Source: a virus. Taken from it: a stretch of DNA of 64,000 nt. A model generated the notes under the pieces. It had not been told where the DNA came from and did no database searches. It saw nothing but the letters and a program-made list of their open reading frames with translations. The stretch spans positions 1-64,000 of IMG/VR virus record IMGVR_UViG_3300031414_000009; one strand, 5' to 3'. Position 1 is the first letter of the stretch. The number at the start of each line of letters is the position of its first letter. The translations under genes and the position numbers were made by a program. Positions 3,412-34,222 of this stretch are shown here, in pieces.

Positions 3412-5538
3412 TTAATGGCGATCAGATATCAAATTACTAATGCGGTCGTCAACGTTAATATAGTAACCTAATGATTCCAATACCAGGTAGTACGCCTCCA
3501 TCGTGTTATAGATGATTTTACGCACGTCGATGATACGGGTGATCTCAGGTGGTACACCAGATGACATGACGATGTTTGCTGGCAGCATGATCGTTGTCAT
3601 TGATGTCTTGTCGTAGCGAGCTGCCCAGGTTTTCAGACGCTCGGCCAGGTCCTTATCTTCGATACCTTCAATCCATCCATTGAAGCCAGTTTTGTTATTG
3701 GCTGCTACTGATGCTTTGATGGCGAAGAACGGAGGTGGATCAGAATGGCCGTATTTATCGGCAAATACCTGCTCCCACAACTCGTAATACGCATACGGTG
3801 AACTTTCTGGTTTGGTATAGAACTCAGGAGCTTTAACCTGTGCTGTGGTTAAGTAACGAGTCTCACCGTTCAGAATACTGTTCTGGATCTCACGCTCACG
3901 ATCGGCAACATCTTTGAGGATCTGCTGCAAATCGATCTGCTCACCGCGAAGGATGGTATCCATGATATCACGGATAAGCTGGGTAGCGCCATTCATGATC
4001 TCGTCTGGCACTTTGGAGTTCTTAAGCGTTACGCCTTTGACTTCCAGCTCAGGTTCAGTATACACGTTGCCTTCACGCGCTGACATGTATGCAAAGTAGT
4101 GCTTAGCACGCGGTGTCAATGCGAATACAGGGAACATATATTCGTTCTTCATGGAGACCTTGTGGATCTTCTCCGTAACAATACCCATGTTACCAGAGAT
4201 AACTGCCAGGTAATGCTTAACCAGCTGGGAACTGAAATACACCACGATACTTGCGATATCGTTAGATGTTTCAGTGAAGTCCAACTGACCGCGATACCAG
4301 ATTGCCCAGTCCTGTACAGTAAAGATGGTTGAGTCAGTATCTGACACGACCGCAGTACGACGAACAGACGACGGGAAGTCTGCAAGTGAGGCAGGAACGT
4401 TGTCAGTTACCATGAAAGCAGCGTAGTAGGTTGCATACGAAGCAATAGCATCCATTACACCCTTAGCGATAGAAGCAACTTTCTGTAAACGTTCGCCGTC
4501 TTCTTTAACCACGTCCCAAATAGTCGAGCCATTCAAGATGCTACCACAGTAAAGACCAACCAATGCAAACTGGTCGTCATCCAGCGCTTTAATAACAGCC
4601 ACCGGATCTTCTACTGGCTCAGTGCGCTTAGTAATCAGACGCGTTAACATCTCACGCATGAACGCCGGGTTGAACTCTTTCAGGTTCCACAGGTCGCCCA
4701 TATAACAGAACGCAGCCCGTTGAATTGGTGACAAGCGACTAACCAGTTCAGCAACTTGTGCAAACTTGTCATCAGCGCGCCAATACAAATCGGTAGAGCG
4801 CTTAATGGTGGCCAGGGTTTCTTCAACAGAGGGATAATGAAGATTGAACTCATCCATTGCACGCTGGATCTTCACGTAGTCTGAGTTAGAGACAATCGAG
4901 ATGATATTGCTCAGCGTGATATCCAGGTTGTAGTAATGACGGTTGCCGGTAATGAAGCGCTCGTTAGAGGCGTTAGCGGTACCCGATGCAGAACGACACA
5001 CTGAAGTCAGAGTTGAGTGTGAGGACTTATTGTAAAGTGGGGTAGATGCCGATGCGTGAGCACCTGACAAACTGTTGTTCTTTACCTTATAAGTCGTTTG
5101 CAGAATGTTGAAGAAAGTTTTACCTGCTTTGTCACCCGCCATATCAGCAAGGAACATCTTCTTCTTAACATCCTTACGTTTGGCCAAGTTCAATAAGATA
5201 TATTCGGCCAGCAGTGAACGCTTCTCAGCGGGGTTAAAGTAAACTGCCATAGTTGGAGACATGATGCAATTGCGCTCACTCACGGTACGCAGATAACCCG
5301 ATACGGTACCTGTATACACATCGCGGTTGCCTTCTGTCTCTTTAGCCAGGTACAGAACACGAGGATCTTTAAACTCATGGCTACCACCAGGACTAATTGC
5401 CGCTTTGACTTTCTCATAGCACTCTTCGTACGGTAATCCTTTCTTAATAGAAAGATACGAAGCTGCGTCGTGCAAGTAGTGCTTAACCATATCAAGGTCA
5501 CGACCGTATGACTCTTGTGGTTGTGTAAATAACTGCAT
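3412..5538 (-). CDS. Family B DNA polymerase, phiKZ gp50-like subunit of split polymerase
   Basis: K..NSLSG (motif B-like), VSDTDSTIF (motif C), KHYFA, ELEVKGV; start MQLF at 5538 with GAGG SD. Confidence 0.85.
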   Translation of the reverse strand: MQLFTQPQESYGRDLDMVKHYLHDAASYLSIKKGLPYEECYEKVKAAISPGGSHEFKDPRVLYLAKETEGNRDVYTGTVSGYLRTVSERNCIMSPTMAVYFNPAEKRSLLAEYILLNLAKRKDVKKKMFLADMAGDKAGKTFFNILQTTYKVKNNSLSGAHASASTPLYNKSSHSTLTSVCRSASGTANASNERFITGNRHYYNLDITLSNIISIVSNSDYVKIQRAMDEFNLHYPSVEETLATIKRSTDLYWRADDKFAQVAELVSRLSPIQRAAFCYMGDLWNLKEFNPAFMREMLTRLITKRTEPVEDPVAVIKALDDDQFALVGLYCGSILNGSTIWDVVKEDGERLQKVASIAKGVMDAIASYATYYAAFMVTDNVPASLADFPSSVRRTAVVSDTDSTIFTVQDWAIWYRGQLDFTETSNDIASIVVYFSSQLVKHYLAVISGNMGIVTEKIHKVSMKNEYMFPVFALTPRAKHYFAYMSAREGNVYTEPELEVKGVTLKNSKVPDEIMNGATQLIRDIMDTILRGEQIDLQQILKDVADREREIQNSILNGETRYLTTAQVKAPEFYTKPESSPYAYYELWEQVFADKYGHSDPPPFFAIKASVAANNKTGFNGWIEGIEDKDLAERLKTWAARYDKTSMTTIMLPANIVMSSGVPPEITRIIDVRKIIYNTMEAYYLVLESLGYYINVDDRISNLISDRH

Positions 5539-5563
5539 TTTATTTTCCTCACTGTTTACTACG

Positions 5564-5586
5564 CATACCATCAGCAAGGAAAGTAA
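5564..5586 (-). promoter_or_regulatory. Class II (middle/late-like) promoter TTAC-N15-TATG for DNA polymerase
   Basis: TTAC tttccttgctgatgg TATG; same spacing at five other intergenic sites. Confidence 0.5.
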
Positions 5587-5598
5587 AAAAAGAAAAGA

Positions 5599-5710
5599 GG
5601 CATAAAAAGACGGTCCCCGAAGGGACCGTCGAAACGCGCTATTTAAGGAATGTGTACAGCCTAAGGTCCCCCGTTACCCGTAGCGCCCCTGACACAGACT
5701 GTAACACATA
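5599..5710 (-). ncRNA. Candidate ~110-nt structured RNA with own promoter and terminator
   Basis: TTAC-N16-TATG at 5707-5730; 12-bp stem TGTGT(T)ACAGTCT/AGGCTGTACACA; terminator GACGGTCCC-TTCG-GGGACCGTC-TTTTTATGCC. Confidence 0.5.
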
Positions 5711-5716
5711 TAATAG

Positions 5717-6136
5717 TTAATTTACAGTAACAACTTTTGCCACTTTATTACCGGTGGTAGCAATTGCTGCTGTAATCGCGTTGATGACGTCCTGGTTACA
5801 GTTCTCGACGTAGAACGCCATGGTGTTATTATCGATAACGGTGATCGAGGCTGGGATAATGTACGGTAAGCCTACGAAGTCTACCGATCCATTGGCCAGT
5901 CTAACCTTTAACCAGTTGTAGTCATCGGCACTAGCTGGGGTACCAGCAGGCAGTGTACCGTAAACATTGGCGTGAATAGCGTACGGATCAAATCCCGCTT
6001 GTTTAACCGAGTCTGCATCAACGATACCCAGGATTTTGCAACCGCTGTAATCTGTGCGGATGATGTTCTGGGTTTGTTGGTACAGAGAGAAGTTCACGGT
6101 GTCGCGGATATTTGCTTTGCCTAACACATCCATCAT
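5717..6136 (-). CDS. Conserved jumbo-phage protein adjacent to DNA polymerase
   Basis: 139 aa ORF, GGAG SD, synteny. Confidence 0.75.
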   Translation of the reverse strand: MMDVLGKANIRDTVNFSLYQQTQNIIRTDYSGCKILGIVDADSVKQAGFDPYAIHANVYGTLPAGTPASADDYNWLKVRLANGSVDFVGLPYIIPASITVIDNNTMAFYVENCNQDVINAITAAIATTGNKVAKVVTVN

Positions 6137-10981: not shown

Positions 10982-11591
10982 GGCGTTTACCCAACATCTC
11001 ATCGAAAACTTTGTTCAGTTCCAGATGGCGATTGTCACGGATGCCTTTGTATTTAACCGTGATGGTCATGGCATCAGTACCTTTGGCAACCAGGAACTGT
11101 GACGAATACTGCTCACCCAGCTCAGCGATCTTATCCATCATGTCTGCGAAGTGATACAGATGTGACGGCTCAGCCTGATCAACCAACAGATAGGTCAGCT
11201 TGATATCTTTACGCAGTGAAGGCATGAAGGTCTTCGACGCATACTCATGTACAATGTTCACACGAGCAAGAACCGCATTACCTTCAAAGTCGGCCACCGT
11301 GGAGACCACACCTAACACCTGCCACTTAGCGGCGGTGAAGCCGGTGAACGCCTGCTCATTAGGGATCATCAGCAGACGCGGTGTGAAGTTATACATCTGA
11401 CGCCAGAACTCAGACAGGTCGAACTCAGGCTTATCGTGCAGAACGGTGTAGCGCTCAACCTTAGCGTGCTCGATCTGAATCAGCGCTTCGCCGCCAGCTG
11501 CTTCAACGATCTCTACCGCAGTCGCATCTTCCAGCAGAACTTTCAGAGAGATTGGGGTAAGGCTATTCAGAACAACGTCAACTACTTTCAT
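10962..11591 (-). CDS. Hypothetical protein
   Basis: 209 aa ORF, biased codon usage. Confidence 0.75.
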   Translation of the reverse strand: MKVVDVVLNSLTPISLKVLLEDATAVEIVEAAGGEALIQIEHAKVERYTVLHDKPEFDLSEFWRQMYNFTPRLLMIPNEQAFTGFTAAKWQVLGVVSTVADFEGNAVLARVNIVHEYASKTFMPSLRKDIKLTYLLVDQAEPSHLYHFADMMDKIAELGEQYSSQFLVAKGTDAMTITVKYKGIRDNRHLELNKVFDEMLGKRHVEEGQ

Positions 11592-12088
11592 TTAATGCTC
11601 CCTATTTGCCGGCATTCATCCAGCAGGATATCGAAATTAATGGGTTCGTGGGTTTTAGTAATAGCTGCTGTCTTTGGCGCAAACGAATCCGTACCAAAGA
11701 CTAGACCGCTTTTAACATGAACATTGGGGCGGTATGTAAATATCCACCTATCTCCAATGGTAATATATATCCCACGTTTTAATGGAACGTTCCTGGCGCG
11801 GTTGGCACCAAAGCCCAGCTGACCGTCCTGGTACCATACGAGTTCGTCATTATGGCACTCGGCGTATTTACGCAGGCACATCTTAATCAGACCATCGCGT
11901 CGCCACTTATCGGCGTAGTCACCTAACCCAAACAAAACCACCGAGTTCTTAAAAGCAGCAATAACAACATCACCGTATACGTGGTATTCTCGAGTTAGGG
12001 TTACAATGGCACCGCTAGATGTTTCCGCCGAAATCTCCCTCAGAGACCCGCACGGTATCATTGACAGGGACACTGAGCTTTTCGCCAT
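11588..12088 (-). CDS. Hypothetical protein
   Basis: ORF. Confidence 0.65.
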   Translation of the reverse strand: MAKSSVSLSMIPCGSLREISAETSSGAIVTLTREYHVYGDVVIAAFKNSVVLFGLGDYADKWRRDGLIKMCLRKYAECHNDELVWYQDGQLGFGANRARNVPLKRGIYITIGDRWIFTYRPNVHVKSGLVFGTDSFAPKTAAITKTHEPINFDILLDECRQIGSIK

Positions 12089-12686
12089 TTTCGTCTTTTT
12101 CCATTTTGATCAACATGTTGTACGCCAGAAATGCGCGGGTCAACATCGCCTCGCGCTGGTAGCCGTTGCCAGGCAAGTAAGCCGTAGCCGCACGGCGGAT
12201 GTGCTCACACAGTGGTGTACCTTCACCCCACCATTTATAGGCTTCGATGCTTGCCTCTAATTCTTCATCAGTGAAGTGGTGTTTGGGGGAGAGCTGCATT
12301 ACCACACTGAGATCGTTCAGGTAACCCAGCACACCATGATCGGTATAGAGATGGTCCGGGATATCCATCAGTCCCGTACCAAGACTGATTACTTTCGAAT
12401 AGGTAAGTGCTCTCACTACTTCGCTTTTCATCAGGGTGAACTGAAGAACGCTATCGAATTTCAGGACTACAATGTCGCCAATCCAACTGTCCTGAACATC
12501 GACGTCGATATCGCGATCAACCAAACCCATCGCTGACAGCAACCCGTTAAGGTATTCGCGCACCGGAGTTACACGAATATAACTCTCTGGCAGTTCGTAG
12601 CTCAATTCTTTCGATTCGTTAATGATGCCTTGAACTAACTCAGCCATTTTGCGCTGGATCTTTAAGTAATCTTCGTTGGTTTCCAT
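12015..12686 (-). CDS. Hypothetical protein
   Basis: ORF with AAGGA SD. Confidence 0.7.
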   Translation of the reverse strand: METNEDYLKIQRKMAELVQGIINESKELSYELPESYIRVTPVREYLNGLLSAMGLVDRDIDVDVQDSWIGDIVVLKFDSVLQFTLMKSEVVRALTYSKVISLGTGLMDIPDHLYTDHGVLGYLNDLSVVMQLSPKHHFTDEELEASIEAYKWWGEGTPLCEHIRRAATAYLPGNGYQREAMLTRAFLAYNMLIKMEKDENGEKLSVPVNDTVRVSEGDFGGNI

Positions 12687-12708
12687 TTTGGTTCCTTAAT
12701 TGAGAAAG

Positions 12709-12820
12709 GGCATAAGGGGTACCCAATTAAGGGTACCCCTAGCGGCAGCGTAAGTAATGGAGGTGAGGGTCAGCGCGTGAGGTCGCTTTACTGCAATTGA
12801 GGGATTACAGTTTTCTCCAT
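12709..12820 (-). ncRNA. Candidate sRNA/leader with three CCUCA motifs
   Basis: TTAC-N16-TATG promoter at 12818-12841; multibranch fold; terminator GGGGTACCC..GGGTACCCC-TTATGCC. Confidence 0.55.
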
Positions 12821-12857
12821 ATAATACAGGCATTTATGTAATTTTTTACAAACTGGG

Positions 12858-13280
12858 TTAACTGGTAGTTGCTGCTATGCCGGTGCAATGGAGAAATCTC
12901 CGCCACAGACTGTAGTTGATTTTATCGTGATCCATCAACCAGTTCATGGTAGAGATTAAATCTGAGGTTTCATCCCAGACAACATAGTCTCTCCGCATGC
13001 AGAAACCTTCCTCTAACAGTCCAGCCAGTCTTCGTATTGCGATGAGATCGGTCATATACTCAGGTACGAGCAAACGACGAATCGCTTTTGTAATACGACG
13101 TTTTGCGGCGAGATTCCAAAAGGGTGTGGCACCACGAATCATGCTGAAGGCTTCAGTAAACTCCCCTACACTGATTCGTGTTAAGACCAATTCCGCTTCG
13201 TCGTCGCACAAGCGAGTGTCGGCCATTAAAATCTGATACGTGGCATTGCGAATACCTTGCACCTCTGAGTCACGTAACAT
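12858..13280 (-). CDS. Hypothetical protein
   Basis: ORF with AAGGAG SD. Confidence 0.7.
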   Translation of the reverse strand: MLRDSEVQGIRNATYQILMADTRLCDDEAELVLTRISVGEFTEAFSMIRGATPFWNLAAKRRITKAIRRLLVPEYMTDLIAIRRLAGLLEEGFCMRRDYVVWDETSDLISTMNWLMDHDKINYSLWRRFLHCTGIAATTS

Positions 13281-13295
13281 GGCACACTCCTTGTT

Positions 13296-13982
13296 TTATT
13301 CGCTAAGGATAGCTTCGATTAACTCACGACGTGGTGTAACCACGCGCATAAATAAAGCACCGGGGTCGTCTTCGTCCTGAGCACTGACCGTGTAGCCAAT
13401 AAACTCATCGGTTGCTTTGCACACTACCGCATCTTCGATGCCATCGATTTCGAGAAATGCTTCGCTATCGTAAAGCGACTCAACCTGCAACAGTTCAATA
13501 TGGGACTGTTGCAAACGCGCCAACAGACCACCTGTTTTATCAACCAGTACCTCAGCGCGTAAAAGTGGTGTCTTACCACCTGCAACAAGTTCGTGATAGA
13601 TATTGAAGGCATCAGACTCGTTCTCTAACCCTATTTCAATATTTAATGTGACCGGTTGGGATGACAACATACTTGAGGTCATCGCGGTATGCGAACTAGG
13701 TCTGCTAACGGTGGCCTGGAATACTAAAGCATACCCATTTTCAAACTCGTTTCTGTAACTAACCCGGTGGATAGGTTGTGCTACACCAAAGGACATCTCT
13801 CCCACACACTCGCCATCCTTAAAGATAGCGGCGTACTCAGGGCGACTTTGGTCCTGAATCACGCGGTAGCCAGATAACGACCCAACGATGGTTTTAACCT
13901 GGGTGTCGATCTGCGGGGATTCCATAAAACCAGAACTGAAACCAAATGGTCCACCCATAGCTATAGCTGTAATGTCTTGCAT
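13296..13982 (-). CDS. Hypothetical protein
   Basis: Start MQDI at 13982 after GAGG. Confidence 0.7.
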   Translation of the reverse strand: MQDITAIAMGGPFGFSSGFMESPQIDTQVKTIVGSLSGYRVIQDQSRPEYAAIFKDGECVGEMSFGVAQPIHRVSYRNEFENGYALVFQATVSRPSSHTAMTSSMLSSQPVTLNIEIGLENESDAFNIYHELVAGGKTPLLRAEVLVDKTGGLLARLQQSHIELLQVESLYDSEAFLEIDGIEDAVVCKATDEFIGYTVSAQDEDDPGALFMRVVTPRRELIEAILSE

Positions 13983-13992
13983 TTCTAACCTC

Positions 13993-14382
13993 TTAAATTG
14001 TTGGTTTCCATACCGGAACTTTACGCATACACTCAAAATCGTTTCTGTGGCGATAATAAGCAGTAAGTCTTGCCACAAGGCACGCAGTGTATTTAACCAC
14101 GTCCAATAACTTATCTCGAGACATTGCGGTGACGATGTCTTTTGCTAATAAGTCAATAGGCTTACCCTCGTCCATACCTGGACCACCGATAATGTCGGGG
14201 AGATCCCCTTCGACCTTTCCTGCGGCTAATAACCTAGCTTTGCAGTAGCTACCCACGACCTCTAACTTGTCAAGGCAAACGCCTATCGTTGATTCGTCGG
14301 GTATGCCGATTAGATCTATTTTTTCGCAATGCTTAACAAGCGAGCGAGCAGCATTGAATGAATTTACGTCAAGATAGTTCAC
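13993..14382 (-). CDS. Hypothetical protein
   Basis: ORF. Confidence 0.6.
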   Translation of the reverse strand: MNYLDVNSFNAARSLVKHCEKIDLIGIPDESTIGVCLDKLEVVGSYCKARLLAAGKVEGDLPDIIGGPGMDEGKPIDLLAKDIVTAMSRDKLLDVVKYTACLVARLTAYYRHRNDFECMRKVPVWKPTI

Positions 14383-16535: not shown

Positions 16536-16583
16536 TTTACTATACCTCTGTTAAATAAGTAATTTTTTACTTTATTGGTTTAT

Positions 16584-16775
16584 GATTTGAGAGAAATGCT
16601 CTCGATGGTTGACACAACACGCATGCAGCAGCAGACGCTAGCAGCAATGCAGATGTTGACCAGTTGTAGGGGGCGGCTCCTGTGATCATTGCCTGATGAC
16701 AGGCGCTTGAGATATCGGGAAGCCGCCACCACACGAAGACAATTGGGGAGCACCTTCGGGTGTTCCTCTTATGCC
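16584..16775 (+). ncRNA. Candidate structured RNA with tRNA-like acceptor stem + ACCA
   Basis: Three hairpins with G-U pairs valid only on + strand; GGCGGCT/AGCCGCC-ACCA; UUCG terminator + TTATGCC. Confidence 0.55.
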
Positions 16776-18350: not shown

Positions 18351-19421
18351 TTATTTAAATGAAACCGAACGCTCGAGACTGTGGTCAAAAGTAATACCAC
18401 GATACTTATCACGAGTAACGCGCAGCGCGTCGATGGAGAGAACCACGTCAGCTTCCATGGTGTGTGGAATATGGTGCGGCTCCATCATGAAGCAGTGCGG
18501 CTGGCAGGCCAGAATGCCAATTGCGACCTTATTGTCAATAACCGCCTGAGTGCGTTGGTTACGGATCATGCTACGATCGCTTGAGGCATTGTAGAAGATG
18601 AAATCGGGTGACTCATTGTCAACCCATTCCAGCGAACGATCCAGCCAGGCAGTAATGTCCTGAAGACGATACTGTCCCGCGTTAAACGCGATCAGCACCA
18701 GCGTGCCTGGCACCAGACCGAATTCGTCTGGAATCAGTTTCTTCAGTTCTTCGGTAGCGAAGACGGCCACTGGTTTAGGACGCTCAATCAGCTCCAGCTC
18801 AGCCGGAACTTCCTGCACCTCCGCAGCTTCAGTGAAGTTCGTTTCAGCAGTATCTGCTACCTGGTACTGTTGTTCGCCACTGCGACCTTTCAGCACGTCA
18901 ACCAGCGTAGTTCCCTGCGCCTCGAGTTCACTGTCCAACAGAGTAATCGGATCTTCTGACTTCTCTTTGGCAGTAAGTTCAACGCCAAAGTCCGCAGCGA
19001 CTTCTGCCAATGCATCAGACGGCCAGAGAGACTCATCTTTAAGCGGCTGCACGCGACCATACGCCTGCTCCAAAGACACGGCGCTGGATGTCGGGGTAGA
19101 CAGAGCAATGGTGCGAGTTTCGAAAGGTACATCGTTGACCTTGCGTTTCAACTCCTCCCATTTCTGCTGACCACCGAATGCTTCAATCTGTTCAGCTGAA
19201 GGTTCGTCGTCCGGCAGTCGCAATTTACCCGCTTCGGCGTCAGCCTGGAACCGAGCAAAGCCTTCGGGATCGATGCTATAGCCTTCTGGCAGCGTGCCCG
19301 CTTCCGGCACCTTACCCTTTTCAGCTGCCGGGATTGTTAAAGATTCGTTAGTATTCGCACTAACGTCAACCACGGTTGTTGACACGTTTGGTGTCTTCTT
19401 GCCTTTATTTTTCTTCGCCAT
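18351..19421 (-). CDS. Hypothetical protein, acidic, possible degenerate RecA-like C-terminal domain
   Basis: GLVPGTLVLIA, ADVVLSI. Confidence 0.65.
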   Translation of the reverse strand: MAKKNKGKKTPNVSTTVVDVSANTNESLTIPAAEKGKVPEAGTLPEGYSIDPEGFARFQADAEAGKLRLPDDEPSAEQIEAFGGQQKWEELKRKVNDVPFETRTIALSTPTSSAVSLEQAYGRVQPLKDESLWPSDALAEVAADFGVELTAKEKSEDPITLLDSELEAQGTTLVDVLKGRSGEQQYQVADTAETNFTEAAEVQEVPAELELIERPKPVAVFATEELKKLIPDEFGLVPGTLVLIAFNAGQYRLQDITAWLDRSLEWVDNESPDFIFYNASSDRSMIRNQRTQAVIDNKVAIGILACQPHCFMMEPHHIPHTMEADVVLSIDALRVTRDKYRGITFDHSLERSVSFK

Positions 19422-30747: not shown

Positions 30748-30786
30748 CGGCATAAAACGAAACTCCTACCCAAAGGCAGAGTTTCA
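30748..30786 (-). terminator. Terminator between leader region and paralog B
   Basis: GAAACTCTGCC..GGTAGGAGTTTC-GTTTTATGCC. Confidence 0.6.
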
Positions 30787-30870
30787 ATTTCGCGCTTTTT
30801 TAAATCAAGTAATGTAATGTAATGAATAGTTGAAGAGAGTAGTCGTAGCTACTCTCTCTAAGGGATAGGT

Positions 30871-30921
30871 TTATATACTAGATACTACTCTTTCTATATA
30901 GTATATATTTATGCTTCGCAT
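30871..30921 (-). CDS. Candidate 16-aa leader peptide MRSINIYYIERVVSSI
   Basis: TAAGGAGG SD; class II promoter at 30960-30984. Confidence 0.4.
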   Translation of the reverse strand: MRSINIYYIERVVSSI

Positions 30922-31046
30922 AGCCCCCTCCTTATTCCTCCCCCATCTCTGGAATTGGACATATAATAAGTACACTTCAGGTAATTAAAAACTAAAAAAG
31001 AAAGAGGGATAAAGAGGAGGGACAGAAGTCCCTCCTTACTATGTTG

Positions 31047-34166: not shown

Positions 34167-34222
34167 TGTTGAGACGGCATAAAAGCTAGGGCCTAAACCC
34201 TAGCTTGTTTTATGTCCCGATT

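Follow-up and report, generated by a model that had tools for sequence, protein, structure and literature searches.

A small RNA family with two conserved C-rich loops, predicted in a phiKZ-like jumbo phage and its relatives

Short RNAs that run from a phage promoter to a nearby terminator were detected by northern blot in phiKZ, with lengths of about 71 nucleotides (nt) for the RNA upstream of PHIKZ221 and 141 nt for the one upstream of PHIKZ302, and sRNA005 and other such small RNAs (sRNAs) were reported for 201phi2-1 (bioRxiv 10.1101/2023.10.13.562163; PMC11512511). In this group of phages, the chimalliviruses, genes are transcribed by two phage RNA polymerases with promoter and terminator signals of their own. 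The phiKZ late promoter, T(-3)ATG(+1), overlaps the start site, its G being the start (PMC4666361), and the published consensus of the phiKZ intrinsic terminator is BCCYCCCCHWWDGGGRRGGBYTTATKYYGT. Here we analyzed the first 64,000 nt (hereafter the window) of IMG/VR record IMGVR_UViG_3300031414_000009, a viral record of 166 kb that is about 61% complete. Two minus-strand genes of the window flank an intergenic spacer of 171 bases (12687-12857), which very probably contains a genuine non-coding RNA gene of about 105 bases, called the element below. The evidence for it is strong and chiefly comparative, consisting of covariation and conservation in eight distinct homologues. The element belongs to the same phage group as the chimallivirus sRNAs and its DNA predicts the same layout (phage promoter, short structured RNA, hairpin and TTAT just upstream of a gene). 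Its promoter and terminator motifs lie about 105 nt apart, where the limit for RNAs of this kind is about 250 nt. It differs from the sRNAs of phiKZ and 201phi2-1 in carrying two invariant C-rich loops on a three-way junction, and it has no detectable homology to chimallivirus sRNAs in a model search that covered PhiPA3, RP12, Ea35-70, and Xoo-sp14, not phiKZ or 201phi2-1.

A second kind of described RNA is comparable through its loops. Enterobacterial CyaR has a C-rich loop that pairs with G-rich Shine-Dalgarno (SD) regions. Pairing with such regions is also the mode of sRNAs with multiple C-rich loops, namely 6C of M. tuberculosis (PMC6486639), RsaE/RoxS, IsrR (PMC9410917), and RNAIII of S. 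aureus. Like the 6C/RsaE/IsrR type, the element presents at least two unpaired C-rich loop motifs that are complementary to GAGG/UGAGG and have been kept as the stems diverged. Of these, CCCUCA shows no change at all and CCUC(C)AC is conserved; the unpaired probabilities of both loops are 0.78-1.0 across the homologues. Unlike that type, it is encoded by a phage (of Gram-negative Enterobacterales) and its motif is CCUCA rather than CCCC/UCCC. The element is not homologous to these sRNAs, as Rfam release 15 gave no match (cmscan of 11500-14000, both strands, E up to 10). With the CsrB/RsmZ sponges it shares a short motif repeated in the hairpin loops of one non-coding RNA, but that motif is CCUCA instead of A(N)GGA, no GGA loops are present, and only two copies are conserved, which sets it apart from the sponges.

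The DNA polymerase encoded in the window shares 74% identity with its counterpart in the nearest isolate, Erwinia phage pEa_SNUABM_54 (pEa54; 272 kb; MW879341), and about 40% with the polymerases of PhiPA3, RP12, Ea35-70, and other phiKZ-like phages. Judged by these identities, the window phage is a chimallivirus, that is, a phiKZ-like, nucleus-forming jumbo phage. When positions 12400-13300 were compared with phages by sensitive blastn, the sole part to align was the spacer, which matched the spacer at the syntenic place in pEa54 (71% identity); the downstream protein is about 30% identical to its pEa54 counterpart. Megablast against phages gave no match. A protein search with the downstream gene recovered 12 homologues (63-98% identity), in whose contigs a spacer of 155-185 bases was found in the same position. 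Together with one IMG/VR contig, the contigs of this search made up a comparison set of 12 sequences, eight of them distinct, from about six lineages. All homologues lie between the same two fast-evolving genes. No relatives were found when IMG/VR was searched for related loci with the downstream protein. Exact 17-mer and 16-mer scans of IMG/VR returned 57 and 85 matches, among which contig L123 alone was real, the rest being almost all chance A/T-rich or palindromic words. A gapped pattern scan of metagenome contigs returned 12 matches and no new lineage, the real ones being L162 (= L123) and L167 (= L156). Covariance models detected one copy in the 166-kb record and one in pEa54, and none in Xoo-sp14, RP12, Ea35-70, or PhiPA3. 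The sequencing runs listed for the locus include no RNA run; the four that were aligned yielded near-identical DNA contigs with a single polymorphism, at 12699, which say nothing about transcript starts or ends.

At the nucleotide level, the element of the window is 97.9% identical to that of L149, 93.7% to that of L151, about 74% to those of the L152-L157 group, and 72.4% to that of pEa54. The corresponding values are 65, 62, about 55, and 54% for the upstream gene and 80, 70, about 64, and 52% for the downstream gene. The non-coding spacer is thus better conserved than both of its neighbors and is therefore under selection of its own. Two small open reading frames (ORFs) were considered and rejected. 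The 45-aa ORF at 12696-12833 is interrupted by frame-shifting indels in the relatives, and the 10-codon mini-ORF MEKTVIPQLQ is likewise not conserved (indels; ATG lost in L123; ATG-TAG in pEa54). As both are destroyed in relatives, the spacer is taken to be non-coding. ARAGORN predicted no tRNA or tmRNA in the window. On these comparisons, the element is a new RNA family that is limited to a narrow clade of chimalliviruses and belongs to an already described kind, the jumbo-phage small RNAs.

A preliminary description of this sequence had proposed a structured minus-strand RNA with C-rich motifs in two hairpin loops, to be checked by covariation in relatives, and covarying stems with conserved loops were indeed observed. 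In a model-guided alignment, 93.4% of the cells formed standard pairs, vs. 38-51% when the partners were slid by one to three columns, and double changes occurred at eight pairs, a number reached by none of 500 shuffles. Hairpin P2 contributed most clearly, with compensatory double changes at five of its seven pairs and 98.2% of cells paired; stems as different as CUGUAAU/AUUGCAG, CCACAAU/GUUGUGG, and GUACAGU/GCUGAAC surround the same loop. The closing stem P1 had 91.7% of cells paired; one of its pairs changed on both sides (A-U to G-C) and seven of its cells are G-U, its 3' arm reading UUUCAC in the L152 clade and UUCCAC in pEa54. The P3 stem is GCG/CGC, replaced by CCG/CGG in pEa54. Both P1 and P3 were retained in every single-sequence fold. 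About 14 G-U cells exist on the minus strand only, and the fold is therefore that of a gene-sense RNA and not of a DNA cruciform. The MAFFT alignments misplace P3 of pEa54 and shift P4, the terminator stem, of the L152 clade.

The P2 loop CCCUCA is invariant in 12/12 sequences, while the P3 loop reads nCCUCACn in seven of the eight distinct ones and UCCUCCACG in pEa54. That two loops with a common CCUCA have stayed unchanged suggests that they are recognized by sequence. The GAGAAA that follows the putative start is invariant or nearly so, and ACGCUGCC in the single-stranded spacer is conserved in all lineages except pEa54. Three exposed CCUCA had been described. All three are present and predicted to be unpaired in the window copy, but only the two in hairpin loops are kept. 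The linker is pyrimidine-rich in all lineages without keeping its CCUCA (CCUCU, CCUUG, or CUCUG in relatives), reading UAUCCUCUU in L123, UGAUCCUUGC in L152, and UUCUUCCUUGC elsewhere; in pEa54 it has become part of P1. With two conserved motifs, the RNA is bivalent and not trivalent. These data also bear on the proposed match of UCACCUCC to the 3' end of 16S rRNA, by which the RNA would mimic that end and compete with ribosomes for SD sequences through its three CCUCA. The window copy does contain UCACCUCC, which occurs once per strand in the genome, together with the three CCUCA. However, this sequence is simply the P1 3' arm plus the linker of the window lineage, the only one to have it, and it is replaced by UCUUCCUCC in L123, UGCUUUCAC in the L152 clade, and UGCUUCCAC in pEa54. 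Furthermore, the CUCC on its 3' side is base-paired as an arm of P1, the CCUC site within UCACCUCC is unpaired with a probability of 0.25, and the third CCUCA is the one that is not conserved. The comparative data contradict such mimicry, and we consider it extremely improbable.

The multibranch fold closed by AUGGAG/CUCCAU that had been drawn from the letters alone was reproduced by RNAfold as a three-way junction closed by P1, with P2 and P3 as branches (Table 1); AAAA follows AUGGAG on the minus strand. The 72-nt core folds at -17.4 kcal/mol (z = -4.5), equaled by none of 200 shuffles, and the complete 171-nt spacer has a z of -5.3. When the RNA was folded from its putative start, the three CCUC(A) sites had unpaired probabilities of 1.0, 0.95, and 0.88; values for the P2 loop were 0.83-1.0. 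Three CCTCA within 39 bases are found nowhere else in the 166-kb record on either strand. A rough Poisson estimate puts the chance of such a cluster at 0.1-0.2, so the CCTCA count by itself is weak evidence. If transcription starts at the G of (T/A)ATG, the RNA measures 104-108 nt in all eight distinct homologues, and each of these, started at that G and folded singly, adopts the same architecture with P1 from position +1.

A TTAC-N16-TATG motif had been pointed out as promoter-like on the minus strand; it is present and it recurs. TTAC-N10-13-WATTATATG has three matches in the 166-kb record vs. 0 in 30 shuffles, all on the minus strand and at gene ends or between genes. In pEa54, TATTATATG occurs three times, always on the gene strand (0 for the reversed control). 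Five of the six TATTATATG copies of the two phages are followed by a canonical terminator after about 70-110 bases; at the sixth, the micro-ORF locus (30984; pEa54 197833), a hairpin follows and a canonical terminator is unconfirmed. Given this distribution, TTAC-N11/12-TATTATATG is probably a rare, phage-private promoter class. The TATG is found in seven of the eight distinct homologues. The TTAC is half of a palindromic box whose half-sites are invariant in 12/12 homologues and whose center varies (AAAA, AAGT, TTTT, TTAT). The palindrome GTAA-W4-TTAC has four sites in the 166-kb record and three in pEa54, all intergenic. Fixed half-sites around a variable center suit a dimeric DNA-binding protein, and the box may be the operator of a regulator. 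At five of these seven sites, a TAT(A/T/G)AT-like element lies 9-11 bases downstream. A sigma-70 promoter on the minus strand was rejected because the -35/-10 spacing does not fit. The plus strand carries a sigma-70 match, TTGAGG-17-TATAAT (12797-12825, 10/12 consensus positions), which is probably incidental, since the conserved loop and the promoter core yield it when read on the opposite strand. A reading as an early (virion RNA polymerase) promoter was dropped as well, as the early motif of this phage, TTTTCAGATATATA, differs from the motif of the element.

At its other end, the element carries the hairpin with TTATGCC that had been described as a terminator. This feature is an instance of the phiKZ intrinsic terminator, a G+C-rich hairpin of 10 bp followed by TTATGCCCT in the window and by TTATGCCGT in the L152 clade, with a 6-nt A/U loop where phiKZ terminators usually have a tetraloop. 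A hairpin scan of the whole record located more than 30 G+C-rich hairpins followed by T-rich TTATGCC; by this count the terminator is the generic phiKZ-type terminator of the phage, with nothing specific to the locus, and it is one part of the element and not its identity. Many terminators of this phage are bidirectional, with the symmetric layout GGCATAAA-hairpin-TTTATGCC (e.g., 34183-34206, 124093-124116, and 160045-160069). By eye, in alignments and single folds, the terminator stem shows compensatory changes (GGGGUACCC/GGGUACCCC, GGGACACCC/GGGUGUCCC, and GGGAUACCC/GGGUAUCCC). The formal count gives double changes in 2/10 pairs with 89.9% of cells paired, and it understates the covariation because two sequences are shifted by one column. 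The CCCUUAUG that follows the hairpin is invariant or nearly so. As the terminator tail contains TATG, the core of the phiKZ late promoter, one cassette may end one unit and start the next.

A cis-acting leader was also considered, in which most transcription from the upstream promoter would end at this hairpin and regulated read-through would control the 223-aa gene. The short RNA would then arise only incidentally, an explanation put forward for several phiKZ transcripts terminated in 5' untranslated regions (UTRs). The downstream gene next to the element is the same in every case, and phiKZ offers a precedent with more than 90% premature termination in 5' UTRs. In addition, the terminator loop CCUUAAUUG is complementary over 9 bp on the minus strand to the ribosome-binding region CAAUUAAGG of that gene. 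Most relatives keep 5-7 bp of this complementarity, and in L156 both segments seem to have changed together (CCUUUA/UAAAGG), but the L152 clade no longer has it. Moreover, inspection of single-sequence folds and the alignment, the only analysis made on this point, revealed no conserved antiterminator pairing with the 5' arm of the terminator; the TATG of the terminator tail could itself start the mRNA of the gene, and a plain attenuator needs no invariant loops. We therefore rate an attenuator as quite improbable.

We infer that the element is transcribed as a separate RNA. Transcription would probably start at the G of TATTATATG (12818), from the rare phage-specific promoter class, and probably stop at the canonical phiKZ-type terminator (hairpin and UUAUGCC), giving an RNA of about 105 nt. 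Its 5' end would be paired in P1 of the three-way junction, with the loops CCCUCA and CCUCAC displayed on arms P2 and P3. Action in trans is the most likely role, the two C-rich loops serving the RNA as its recognition surface, and the mode that we favor is base pairing with G-rich, SD-like UGAGG/GAGG sites of mRNAs. Taken as a whole, this account of an independent sRNA that recognizes a partner through its two loops has in our view about an even chance of being right. Several observations weigh against it. The start at G12818 is placed by analogy with the phiKZ late promoter, and the pEa54 copy reads AATG instead of TATG (TAATAATG). The covariation support for P1 and P3 is weak, in P3 because the stem is short and hardly varies. 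The CCUCA shared by the loops would form only 5 bp, which is short for sRNA-mRNA pairing. In 200 translation-initiation regions of the phage, complementarity to the loops was not enriched (RNAduplex mean of -11.4 vs. a background of -11.35 kcal/mol), and pEa54 lacks an orthologue of the gene that ranks first among the predicted phage targets (start at 19421). Finally, no terminator separates the element from the stop codon of the upstream gene (12858), so that the element must also exist as the 3' UTR of the upstream mRNA.

This last point, together with the deviating pEa54 core, would fit an element that has no promoter of its own and is a structured 3' UTR of the upstream operon, serving as a stabilizer, a processing site, or the source of a cleaved 3'UTR-derived RNA, with the box as an operator or other signal. 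In the L152 clade, the upstream stop codon even overlaps the GTAA half of the box. However, TTAC-N11/12-TATTATATG recurs only before short transcription units, and does so in two phages; in 8/8 sequences the G of (T/A)ATG is exactly the first base of P1; and about 45 bases upstream of P1 are conserved though they lie outside the fold. We regard a mere 3' UTR as unlikely. The lack of enrichment of complementary sites in phage mRNAs speaks for a different possibility, namely that the RNA is a decoy or platform for a protein. An RNA-binding protein with two domains, or one that forms dimers, from either the phage or its host, could bind the two CCUCA loops held on a rigid three-way junction, and the RNA would titrate, recruit, or localize that protein with a logic like that of CsrB/RsmZ or of phage coat-protein hairpins. 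The same pentamer in two loops of fixed geometry, the invariance of the loops while the stems drift, and a motif length of 5 nt, typical of a protein site, speak for such a role. Real sponges, though, have 7-22 motifs where the element has two conserved ones, no RNA-binding domain is apparent in the flanking proteins (no Pfam or PHROG matches), and we know of no CCUCA-binding protein. A protein-binding role thus seems rather unlikely to us. Mimicry of CRISPR repeats or of anticodon loops was dropped because the stem sequences are not conserved.

For the independent sRNA, one more specific form can be proposed, in which the two CCUCA loops would be a bivalent anti-SD surrogate that masks UGAGG/GAGG sites of host mRNAs or of the phage DNA polymerase mRNA and acts as a switch of translational selectivity, the RNA being part of a small regulon under the private promoter class TATTATATG. 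Four lineages (window, pEa54, L060, and L061) have UGAGGAA as the SD of their DNA polymerase gene, which offers 5-6 bp of complementarity to the loops. The preliminary description had AAGGA in many ribosome-binding sites of the phage, and most sites are indeed of the AAGGA type (AGGA 87, GAGG 39, and UGAGG 8 of 200 crude gene calls), and if the surrogate existed, most phage mRNAs, which use (U)AAGGA, would stay free. This form is a conjecture to which we assign a low probability. The start of the DNA polymerase gene is probably the ATG at 5535 and not the upstream TTG at 5577.

To our knowledge, small RNAs of phiKZ-like phages have only recently been seen in transcriptomes, none has a known function, and none has been defined by covariation. 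The family described here is clearly delimited, its fold is supported, its two invariant loops indicate sites for mutation, and it has a cultured member, pEa_SNUABM_54, which makes the role of such RNAs directly testable. The rare motif TATTATATG stands in both phages before short units that are non-coding or hold a micro-ORF, and it may be of use in annotating the non-coding genes of related jumbo phages. If the loops do target SD-like sites, the element would be a phage example of a C-rich-loop mechanism so far described from bacterial sRNAs.

Table 1. Coordinates of the element, its surroundings, and related motifs (window positions unless another sequence is named)
Feature	Position	Strand	Remarks
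Upstream gene, 140 aa	12858-13280	minus	Stop codon 12858-12860; no Pfam or PHROG family match
Palindromic box GTAAAAAATTAC (GTAA-N4-TTAC)	12838-12849	minus	TTAC half (12841-12838) is the promoter-like upstream element, 16 bases from TATG
Promoter core TATTATATG	12818-12826	minus	TATG at 12821-12818; G12818 is the putative start
P1 5' arm AUGGAG	12815-12820	minus	Only GGAG in the RNA if the start is G12818
Hairpin P2, CUGUAAU/CCCUCA/AUUGCAG	12791-12810	minus	7-bp stem; loop CCCUCA 12803-12798
Hairpin P3, (A)GCG/ACCUCACG/CGC(U)	12772-12787	minus	Loop ACCUCACG 12783-12776
Junction linker GACCCUCAC	12763-12771	minus	Third CCUCA at 12768-12764
P1 3' arm CUCCAU	12757-12762	minus	With the linker forms the 16S-like UCACCUCC
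Single-stranded spacer UACUUACGCUGCCGCU	12741-12756 (16 nt)	minus	From junction to terminator; predicted mostly unpaired
Terminator hairpin AGGGGUACCC-UUAAUU-GGGUACCCCU then UAUGCC	12709-12740 (hairpin 12740-12715)	minus	10 bp; reads as hairpin and TTATGCC
Terminator apex CCUUAAUUG	12722-12733	minus	Complementary to CAAUUAAGG
Ribosome-binding region CAAUUAAGG	12694-12702	minus	Upstream of the 223-aa gene
Downstream gene, 223 aa	12015-12686	minus	Start ATG 12686-12684; SD AAGGA 12697-12693; no Pfam or PHROG family match
DNA polymerase SD region	5536-5551	minus	Complementary to CCUCA loops
Palindrome sites, window	2242, 12838, 16559		Intergenic
Palindrome site, rest of the record	158899		Intergenic
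Palindrome sites, pEa54	16522, 31325, 214400		Intergenic
Promoter motif copy 1	12818-12841	minus	Locus of the element
Promoter motif copy 2, TTAC-N11-TATTATATG	5730-5707	minus	Followed by the DNA polymerase-proximal RNA unit
Promoter motif copy 3	30984	minus	Precedes a micro-ORF that has a very strong SD
TATTATATG copy, pEa54	197833		Orthologue of the 30984 unit (micro-ORF)
TATTATATG copy, pEa54	Upstream of DNA polymerase		Conserved copy; its terminator covaries, also seen in L061
TATTATATG copy, pEa54	MW879341 257706 (L182:1501)	plus	Hairpin and TTTTTTCTTATGCCGT about 70 bases on
Early motif TTTTCAGATATATA, examples	113721, 89801, 84721, 78921, 59639, 46943, 30248, 21791	minus

Beside the element, other candidate units were noted in the two phages. 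Directly upstream of the DNA polymerase gene, a second small unit on the minus strand (5599-5745) would encode a G-rich, structured RNA about 85 nt long, ending at a terminator (5630-5609) with TTTTTATGCC; its promoter, RNA, and covarying terminator are conserved in pEa54, L060, and L061. Behind the third TATTATATG copy (30748-30984, minus strand) come a very strong SD (GGGGGAGGAAUAAGGAGGGGG) and a micro-ORF, an arrangement conserved in pEa54. The pEa54 unit at 257706 is another candidate small RNA, whose counterpart was not seen in the 61%-complete window record. On the plus strand, positions 16559-16775 hold a GTAATTTTTTAC box with TATGAT, about 170 bases, and a canonical terminator, GGGGAGCACC-TTCG-GGTGTTCCTC-TTATGCC. 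This unit runs opposite to all neighboring genes and is a candidate antisense-oriented unit with a possible 29-codon ORF. Finally, at least 12 genes are preceded, at a distance of 40-60 bases, by a highly conserved A/T-rich motif, (AAA)TTTTCAGATATATA(n)TAC. All of them lie on the minus strand, and the motif is presumably the early (virion RNA polymerase) promoter of the phage.

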